Below are positions 25,036-25,446 of a stretch of 64,000 nt of DNA, piece by piece. The translations under genes and the position numbers were made by a program. The notes beneath the pieces are model-generated. The model was not told where the DNA came from, did not search any database, and saw only the letters and a program-made list of their open reading frames with translations. The stretch spans positions 672,001 through 736,000 of the forward strand of contig OY969699.1 in NCBI GenBank assembly GCA_963702025.1, given 5' to 3'. How positions within the stretch are numbered: the stretch's first letter is position 1; each line of letters opens with the position of its first letter. The DNA is from an uncultured bacterium (GTDB taxonomy: Bacteria > Babelota > Babeliae > Babelales > Vermiphilaceae).

Positions 25036-25446
25036 TTATCTTTTCATGTATTCTTTTACTCTTCGTGTTTCCTTGCTGCACTGAGCATAGTTTCTATATG
25101 CCTGCTGCTCTATCCTCTGGCAGGATTCATGGATATCCTTGCAACTTCTAAGAATAGAATCAATGTTTTTACATTCGTTTGAACAGCCATTTCTGGCGCA
25201 ATCTCCCATAACTTCTTTCCAAAATTTCTCGGCTTTAGCTAAAGTATGCCATGCATTAAACGCCCTATCTTCCTCTTCTTGGCATTTTTGCAACGGCCCA
25301 GGTGGGCGGGGCGCAGACGAATACGGGCGAATAGTTTTCAATGATGCACGTACAATGAGCGGAGCATAATGCACAGTTGGGCGGCGGAGCATCGCGGCTG
25401 ATTTTTGTGGTGCGCAGAGGGCGAGAATTATAAAGAGTTTTTTCAT
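25036..25446 (-). CDS. Exported Cys-rich helical protein with a mitochondrial-presequence-like mature N-terminus
   Basis: Signal peptide ..SAA then MLRRPTVHYAPLIVRASLKTIRPYSS. Confidence 0.7.
   Translation of the reverse strand: MKKLFIILALCAPQKSAAMLRRPTVHYAPLIVRASLKTIRPYSSAPRPPGPLQKCQEEEDRAFNAWHTLAKAEKFWKEVMGDCARNGCSNECKNIDSILRSCKDIHESCQRIEQQAYRNYAQCSKETRRVKEYMKR

Follow-up and report, generated by a model that had tools for sequence, protein, structure and literature searches.

Effectors with N-terminal mitochondrial signals include Map and EspF of enteropathogenic Escherichia coli and Ats-1 of Anaplasma; effectors of type III and type IV systems are injected directly, so that their basic signal already lies at the N-terminus of the protein as first translated. 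A second arrangement, in which a bacterial signal peptide is followed by an address read by the host, is found in the Sec-dependent effectors of Candidatus Liberibacter asiaticus and in phytoplasma SAP11, where a nuclear localization signal (NLS) lies behind the signal peptide; Sec export is enough for phytoplasmas because they lack an outer membrane. Here we describe a gene of 136 codons plus stop, located at positions 25036..25446 (minus strand) of a 64-kb stretch of contig OY969699.1 (64,000 nucleotides, hereafter the window) from an uncultured member of the Vermiphilaceae (assembly GCA_963702025.1). Its product would have the same two-part N-terminus as the phytoplasma and Liberibacter effectors, the known addresses of which are nuclear or other, with no matrix presequence found among them in our searches. 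In this protein, an acid-free, Arg-rich leader follows a Sec-type signal peptide and might act as a mitochondrial matrix presequence.

The VacA toxin of Helicobacter pylori also carries a Sec signal peptide, and is an autotransporter with its own cell-entry subunit, unlike the protein described here. The mature N-terminus of the likewise Sec-exported VacA p34 directs the protein via Tom20 and the TOM complex into host mitochondria; this signal, unlike that considered here, consists of 32 uncharged hydrophobic residues rather than a basic presequence, and the protein ends in the inner membrane after import that is independent of membrane potential (PMC2861713). Etf-1 of Ehrlichia needs its N-terminal 24 residues to reach host mitochondria (PMC8106314). 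Compared with the type III and type IV effectors, the present system differs in that no match to a type III secretion system export gate was found in the genome and that signal peptidase would have to expose the signal. Matrix presequences themselves are described as 20-60 residues long, high in Arg and low in acidic residues, with Arg at -2, -3 or -10 and an amphiphilic positive helix (PMC7723863). The leader shares with these eukaryotic substrates of TOM20/22, TIM23 and MPP/Icp55 its length, high Arg content, lack of acidic residues, M-L-R start and R-x-Y/S-S end (a slash marks a cleavage site; PMC7723863). Like free presequences, it is predicted to be disordered. It differs from them in being encoded by a bacterium behind a Sec signal peptide, in becoming N-terminal only after cleavage by signal peptidase I (SPase I), in being very rich in Pro and in an amphipathicity not above that of shuffled sequences.

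The genome is a single contig of 1.596 Mb with 39% GC that encodes three ATP/ADP translocases and two secretins; 911 of its 1654 open reading frames (ORFs) have signal-peptide-like starts under a loose in-house rule. Because secretins are present, the organism is probably diderm. The excerpted descriptions of Chromulinavorax and Babela report similarly reduced genomes with ATP/ADP translocases, signal peptides on about half of the ORFs and ankyrin proteins presumed to act on the host (PMC6561590; PMC4378268). In Chromulinavorax, 44% of coding sequences carry signal peptides and the host mitochondrion wraps the bacterium (PMC6561590); in Babela, ankyrin proteins with signal peptides are assumed to enter the cytoplasm of the amoeba (PMC4378268). 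By these matching traits, the organism studied here is reduced, host-dependent and Dependentiae-like; the same excerpts mention neither presequence-like leaders nor the regular placement of Met after the signal peptide that is described below (PMC6561590; PMC4378268). In the open-access literature, our search turned up no description of a Sec signal peptide followed by a matrix-type presequence, nor of such a Met rule in Dependentiae. The Dependentiae, obligate parasites of protists, are widespread, and one or more cultured members reshape the host mitochondrion; to our knowledge, no Dependentiae effector has yet been tied to that organelle.

Architecture and conservation of the exported protein

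The translated product, which belongs to an orphan family confined to one genus, reads MKKLFIILALCAPQKSAA / MLRRPTVHYAPLIVRASLKTIRPYSS APRPPGPLQKCQ EEED... All sequence details given for residues 1-44 (25315-25446) in the first-pass annotation, namely the MLRR start after the signal peptide, five basic and no acidic residues and the R-P-Y/S-S end, were confirmed by the translation. The Sec-type signal peptide comprises residues 1-18 (25393..25446; this and the following features are on the minus strand), with the n-region MKK, the h-region LFIILALCA and the c-region PQKSAA. The leader that follows, residues 19-56 (25279..25392), contains 5 Arg, 2 Lys, 7 Pro and no Asp or Glu among its 38 residues and is predicted to be disordered; its first 26 residues (25315-25392) include 4 Arg and 1 Lys plus 1 His, again with no Asp or Glu, and end in R-P-Y-S-S (residues 40-44; 25315..25329), which fits the MPP/Icp55 R-3 pattern R-x-[YFL]/[SA]. 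Residues 51-135 (25042..25296) are predicted to form an antiparallel helical hairpin, with helices at 51-86 and 95-135, the apex of which carries four cysteines (C83, C88, C92 and C102; 25141..25200) that are invariant in the six-member alignment with the spacing C-x4-C-x3-C-x5-9-C. Both this layout and its conservation are nearly certain: the product is a small protein for export that consists of a Sec signal peptide, a disordered Arg/Pro-rich leader and a Cys-capped hairpin.

To judge from the upstream sequence, the real start of the gene is the first ATG, which overlaps the TAA stop codon of the preceding ankyrin gene (25446-26144) and is preceded by the Shine-Dalgarno-like motif AAGGA (25453..25457, minus strand), identified 6 nt 5' of it in the upstream 20 nt. 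Of 392 comparable genes across the genome, 231 carry such a motif ahead of their first ATG and 6 carry one ahead of the internal Met codon, the latter share being under the coding background of 6.6%. An internal start at Met19 was rejected because no Shine-Dalgarno-like motif precedes that codon.

The predicted SPase I site, S-A-A/M, is occupied by a small and uncharged residue at both -3 and -1, the signal-peptide layout is identical in all six aligned members and the genome encodes one copy of SPase I (TIGR02227 match above the cut-off). Two other types of signal were considered and rejected. The lipobox recognized by signal peptidase II has the form [LVI][ASTVI][GAS]C, whereas the corresponding segment here is L-A-L-C, with Leu at -1, and other members lack the Cys or have it at a different place (e.g., P0006). 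A Tat signal is not compatible with the position of the RR pair after the hydrophobic core, and TatC (PF00902) has no match in this 95%-complete, single-contig genome. The leader would become N-terminal only through SPase I cleavage ahead of Met19, as the site predicts.

A word-index homology search returned only the protein itself, and phmmer against 1.8 billion representatives yielded three true homologues of 130-140 residues, after two further matches (P0002 and P0004) were dropped as spurious repeat proteins. Searches for homologous loci gave no match with P0001 and, with P0005, only a contig of a genome of the same genus (G006). Whole-genome searches detected family members in four of the seven other genomes of the genus, and 72 further genomes of the bacterial family gave a single weak match, in another genus. 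The members within the genus share a common plan, namely a signal peptide, the motif M-[LHYF]-R (7 of 7), a basic leader, the motif P-G-P-L-Q and the hairpin; in all six members that were aligned, the signal peptide is directly followed by M-[LHY]-R and an acid-free leader. The first 25 leader residues of these six proteins contain no Asp or Glu among 150 positions, along with 25 Arg, 7 Lys and 19 Pro, compared with 69 Asp or Glu, 36 Arg, 64 Lys and 14 Pro among the remaining 531 residues. Arg and Pro are each enriched 3.7-fold in the leader, in a genome with an overall Arg/Lys ratio of 0.52. Given that the mean pairwise identity is nearly equal and low in the leader (24%) and in the hairpin (25%), the composition of the leader has been held during sequence turnover. 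By these comparisons, the acid-free, Arg-rich character of the leader exceeds chance across the family.

AlphaFold2, run on the six-sequence alignment, produced a model with a mean predicted local distance difference test score (pLDDT) of 75.7, in which the signal peptide forms a short helix (residues 5-11), residues 14-37 have pLDDT below 50 and the first helix past the signal peptide starts at residue 51. Blocks of 10 residues across the hairpin have mean pLDDT above 90, except for residues 81-90 (77) and the turn at 91-100 (57). Comparison of this model with the PDB using Foldseek revealed only generic coiled-coil hairpins (E > 0.6), and a profile search of PDB sequences gave a single match, to an uncharacterised protein (E = 0.042), with none below 0.04; there was no usable match in the ESM Atlas, and the protein matches no Pfam family. 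The CHCH (twin CX9C) and small Tim (twin CX3C) folds, which are defined by two CX9C or two CX3C pairs on opposed helices, were rejected in view of the apex spacing, with its variable last gap. The apex cysteines may form either a disulfide or a metal site; no match to DsbA or DsbB was detected in the genome.

The leader as a candidate mitochondrial presequence

The first-pass annotation read the segment behind the signal peptide as a mitochondrial presequence. We consider this the leading single hypothesis, with a probability of roughly 0.3. In its favor, 24 residues separate the predicted SPase I site from the putative R-P-Y/S-S cleavage point, which is inside the range of presequence lengths; the composition, high in Arg and low in acidic residues, matches that of presequences, as does the M-L-R start; R-P-Y/S-S conforms to an MPP site, with R.[FY][SA] arising in 3.7% of shuffles of the leader (P = 0.037); the acid-free character with Arg in excess of Lys is conserved; and leaders of a similar kind recur on unrelated signal-peptide proteins of two other genomes, as described below. 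The location of the gene in a row of signal-peptide ankyrin, GNAT and ubiquitin-like genes, and the Met at +1, a mark of lineage-specific genes, also speak for a role of this kind. Amphipathicity, the predicted structure and the Pro content do not support the claim. The top 11-residue window, IVRASLKTIRP, has a hydrophobic moment of 0.71, compared with 0.58 +/- 0.12 for shuffled sequences (p = 0.14).

If the leader is such a presequence, SPase I would cut between Ala18 and Met19 and expose it as a free N-terminus. The protein would then reach the host cytosol, as would the neighboring signal-peptide ankyrin, GNAT and ubiquitin-like proteins; the genome has two secretins, and outer-membrane vesicles have reportedly been proposed as an export route in a relative. 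There, the leader would be bound by TOM20/22 and drawn through TIM23, after which MPP would cut behind R-P and Icp55 would remove the Tyr, so that the hairpin domain would be delivered into host mitochondria, on which these energy parasites depend. A presequence role of the leader would fit the reliance of this group on ATP from the host and the way in which the mitochondrion surrounds Chromulinavorax.

Several observations weigh against this interpretation. Within the family, the R-3 site is in register (R-x-[YH]-S) in only three of the six aligned members, the leader of the member in genome G001 contains two Glu, and the weak homologue from outside the genus combines its signal peptide with a Pro-rich acidic linker and has neither the Met nor a basic leader. 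The maximal hydrophobic moment is not above that of shuffled sequences in any of the six members (p 0.07-0.86), the leader has no helix in the AlphaFold2 model, and enrichment in Pro is atypical for presequences. The four-cysteine-stabilised hairpin, moreover, would need unfolding for import through TIM23. Export itself poses a difficulty, as the early mature region of exported proteins in Gram-negative bacteria is typically neutral or negative, and Arg at both +3 and +4 would be expected to impede their passage through Sec. Mature residues 1-6 of this protein have a net charge of +2, and a net charge of at least +2 in this region is rarer among proteins with Met after the signal peptide (17 of 392) than among control segments (29 of 379).

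Further evidence, both for and against, comes from a census in which the same ORF and signal-peptide rules were applied to this genome (G000), to the whole of G006 and to 97% of G016, a genome of another genus. In G000, a 25-residue leader with no Asp or Glu and at least four Arg is found in 2 of the 392 proteins with Met after the signal peptide, against 0.42 expected (P = 0.066), the frequency of such windows in internal segments of G000 being 0.107%; one of the two proteins is a doubtful ORF of 76 residues. The net charge of mature residues 1-25 in G000 is distributed unimodally, as in internal control segments, and mature residues 9-48 show no overall excess of the motifs RS[FY] (in G000, 5 versus 4.0 expected) or R.[FY][SAT] (11 versus 9.6). 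An ankyrin protein (G000:1012429) with a basic N-terminus ending in LRSY turned out to be a false positive, its G006 orthologue being acidic in this region. We also applied a criterion set beforehand to the pooled genomes (22 non-hydrophobic residues with no Asp or Glu, at least three Arg and at least as many Arg as Lys), under which 15 of 779 N-termini that start with Met after a signal peptide qualify, compared with 48 of the 16,974 windows anchored at an internal Met (P = 6e-8) and with 33 of 2977 ordinary ORF N-termini, so that the enrichment over the latter is only about 1.7-fold. A class of presequence-like leaders is therefore real but modest, and N-termini generally lean in this direction.

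The genome-wide look for further proteins of this kind that the first-pass annotation had proposed thus stayed within chance in G000 itself and was positive in the other two genomes. In G006, 4 of 202 proteins have a 25-residue leader with no Asp or Glu and at least five Arg, against 0.16 expected (P = 2e-5), although one pair among them is paralogous; their leaders are MRRAAPVRAARAAMPRF/KT, MRRAAPVRVATQRAQRAPQRQSG, MMRRAARPPMSRPAVTARPAPVRRPAVPVRSF/KT and MHRAAARCPRAKPIARAVMRAH/SV, with MMRRAARPP...VRSF/KT as an example of the pattern. No mutual similarity was detected among these four proteins except for the leader module common to the two paralogues. In G016, 3 of 185 proteins have such a leader with at least four Arg, against 0.21 expected (P = 0.0013), examples being MLLIRARMLNGTSRSRIAQSMAYSTRRSS and MLLATRTSSLRRTRGIMRDF/HSS. 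Among 34 pre-defined basic leaders from the three genomes, RS[FY] occurs four times, against 0.59 expected, and one of the four is a false positive.

Three further proteins of G000 with Met after the signal peptide have acid-free basic starts, an ankyrin protein (1275076-1275861, minus strand) and two orphans (1064217-1065002 and 1278215-1278634, both minus strand), which end in GRSF/ST, NRSY/SS and KRF/TA, respectively; a GNAT protein (172128) is a further candidate. None of these four shows homology to the G006 leader proteins with which they were compared or searched, and the functions of the proteins with candidate leaders in G000 give no pointer to mitochondria. The G016 protein with the MLLATRTSSLRRTRGIMRDF/HSS leader belongs to a row of four small ORFs of 95-155 residues (C1:1009614-1011130), all of which combine a signal peptide and a basic leader with a charged region that, judged by eye, looks helical; the plan of these proteins is analogous to that of the protein described here, with no detectable homology.

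The Met that opens the leader belongs to a wider regularity. In G000, 392 of the 911 ORFs with signal-peptide-like starts have a Met directly behind an SPase-like site, and the next residue is Glu in 174, Gln in 43, Asp in 17 and Asn in 14 of them (248 of 392 together). The Met-Glu rule stated in the first-pass annotation is accordingly real and at the same time broader than stated. In a looser count, made before the filter on -1 and -3, 165 Met-Glu cases have the consensus M-E-[KL]-P, with Lys at +3 in 60 and Pro at +4 in 66, and are preceded at -1 by Ala (72), Gly (37), Ser (28), Thr (11), Pro (10), Cys (6) or Asn (1). Similar preferences are seen in G006 (Glu 63, Gln 26 and Asp 18 of 202), whereas G016 prefers Asp (48 of 185, compared with Glu 15, Gln 13 and Asn 13). 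To describe the present protein as a telling exception to the rule was an overstatement: given that 218 of the 392 proteins have a residue other than Glu at +2, and that 17 share the +2 charge, it is not a singular case. Examples of ORFs in the window with Met at the predicted cleavage site are 24142-25014, 28357-28746 and 59730-60818 (all minus strand).

When ORFs with reciprocal best hits in G016 were taken as the core of G000, Met at +1 was found in 382 of 813 non-core but in only 10 of 98 core ORFs with signal-peptide-like starts (P = 1e-13), and none of the ten core cases is Met-Glu. Met at +1 marks lineage-specific genes and is not a general preference of the peptidase; neither is it an alternative start, because a Shine-Dalgarno-like motif precedes it in so few of the genes. 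Three neighboring genes of G006 (C1:26984-29643; L057:7184-9843) have near-identical signal peptides (...A.SIA/M) followed by unrelated mature parts, two of which start with MRRAAPVR... and one with MEQEKK.... Since a shared signal peptide is thus joined to differing continuations, the junction at the Met is modular, and signal peptide and leader behave, as far as the sequences of this trio indicate, as exchangeable 5' modules. In eukaryotes, M-[DENQ] is the class of N-termini acetylated by NatB. A generalization in which these parasites site the signal-peptidase cut to yield eukaryote-style N-termini, with Met-[DENQ] as the default and, as a minority, Met-hydrophobic-Arg at the head of acid-free, Arg-rich presequences that carry small coiled-coil proteins such as this one to host mitochondria, and in which a two-step route through Sec and then TOM/TIM operates in several genera, appears unlikely.

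Alternative roles of the leader

The protein could instead be a host-directed effector whose leader serves as another kind of signal or docking element, such as a nuclear or nucleolar signal, a nucleic-acid-binding tail, a ligand of SH3 or WW domains or a 14-3-3 site, a possibility that we rate as somewhat improbable. It would account for the joint enrichment of Arg and Pro, with repeated R-P, P-x-x-P and A-P-R elements, as well as for the disorder of the region and its unremarkable amphipathicity. The 14-3-3 mode II pattern is R-x-[YF]-x-S-x-P, and the segment R-P-Y-S-S-A-P (residues 40-46; 25315-25335, minus strand) fits it; the looser R-x-x-S-x-x-P is in register in three of the six members, but the exact pattern occurs in this protein alone (1 of 6), so that a conserved 14-3-3 mode II ligand was rejected. 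The basic residues, furthermore, are scattered rather than clustered as in classical NLSs, Lys is avoided, and the strict M-[LHYF]-R start in all seven members points to a reader of the N-terminus. In the cytosol of a eukaryote, an exposed, acid-free and Arg-rich N-terminus would, in addition, tend toward mitochondrial uptake anyway.

It is also rather improbable that the protein stays in the periplasm, in the outer membrane or at the surface, where the basic tail would bind the anionic envelope or tether the hairpin without being read by a host. The Sec signal peptide, the lack of a recognisable eukaryote-like domain and the four cysteines, which suit an extracytoplasmic fold, are all compatible with such a location, and presequence-like N-termini are about as common among ordinary ORF N-termini, as the pooled counts indicate. 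Envelope housekeeping proteins would not be expected to be limited to one genus, as this family is after the search of the 72 further genomes, nor to carry at +1 the Met that marks lineage-specific, effector-like genes, nor to lie among ankyrin, GNAT and ubiquitin-like genes. Plain electrostatic binding, moreover, needs no choice of Arg over Lys in an AT-rich genome, and no hydrophobic helix follows the leader.

That the leader has no specific function, being a tolerated low-complexity linker kept by descent and possibly a GC-rich filler between modules, is quite unlikely. The chance-level frequency of such stretches in G000, the modular Met junction, at which adjacent G006 genes continue as either MRRAAPVR... 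or MEQEKK..., and the Pro-rich acidic linker that the distant homologue carries instead are what would be expected of a dispensable segment. Nevertheless, a complete lack of acidic residues in 150 positions at 24% identity, against 13% acidic residues elsewhere, is hard to explain without selection; the ratio of Arg to Lys flips within the same proteins, from 25:7 in the leader to 36:64 in the rest, and all seven members have kept the M-[LHYF]-R start.

An uncleaved hydrophobic segment with flanking Arg that block or invert translocation, giving a membrane-anchored protein with its hairpin in the bacterial cytoplasm, would agree with the positive charges around the hydrophobic core (MKK...QK...RR) and with the disfavor of basic early mature regions among the exported proteins of this genome, but was rejected as very unlikely because the core, of about 9-10 residues, is too short for a membrane span, and small residues at -3 and -1, a layout conserved in the family and the same +2 charge on 17 other proteins with Met after the signal peptide speak against it as well.

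If the leader does act as a matrix presequence, the family described here, the four G006 proteins and several G016 proteins would make up a short list of candidate mitochondrial effectors, and the joining of a prokaryotic to a eukaryotic address would be a new one for bacteria. If it is merely a basic spacer, the lesson is one of caution, in that about 1-2% of bacterial N-termini would mimic presequences by composition alone.

Genomic neighborhood

The window is rich in ankyrin, WD40 and GNAT genes. The gene for the leader-bearing protein is the sixth in a row of seven genes on the same strand that encode, in order, a ubiquitin-like protein, an orphan, a GNAT protein, an M15 dipeptidase, an ankyrin protein, the protein itself and another ankyrin protein, all with signal-peptide-like starts. 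The first gene of the row (28357-28746, minus strand) combines a signal peptide with a ubiquitin-like domain, as do L009:5558-5944 and L005:1007-1405; the matches of ubiquitin-like genes to PF00240 are weak (E = 9e-4 and 3e-3). In G006 and in G002, too, the homologue of the leader-bearing protein has a ubiquitin-like gene immediately upstream. The fourth gene of the row (26201-26974, minus strand), for a signal-peptide-bearing D-Ala-D-Ala dipeptidase (Peptidase_M15, E = 1.7e-37), lies inside an otherwise effector-like series. Elsewhere in the window, two genes for DDE transposases (9171-10295 and 41069-41698, both minus strand; DDE_Tnp_1 and DDE_3) are located among the ankyrin, WD40 and GNAT genes.

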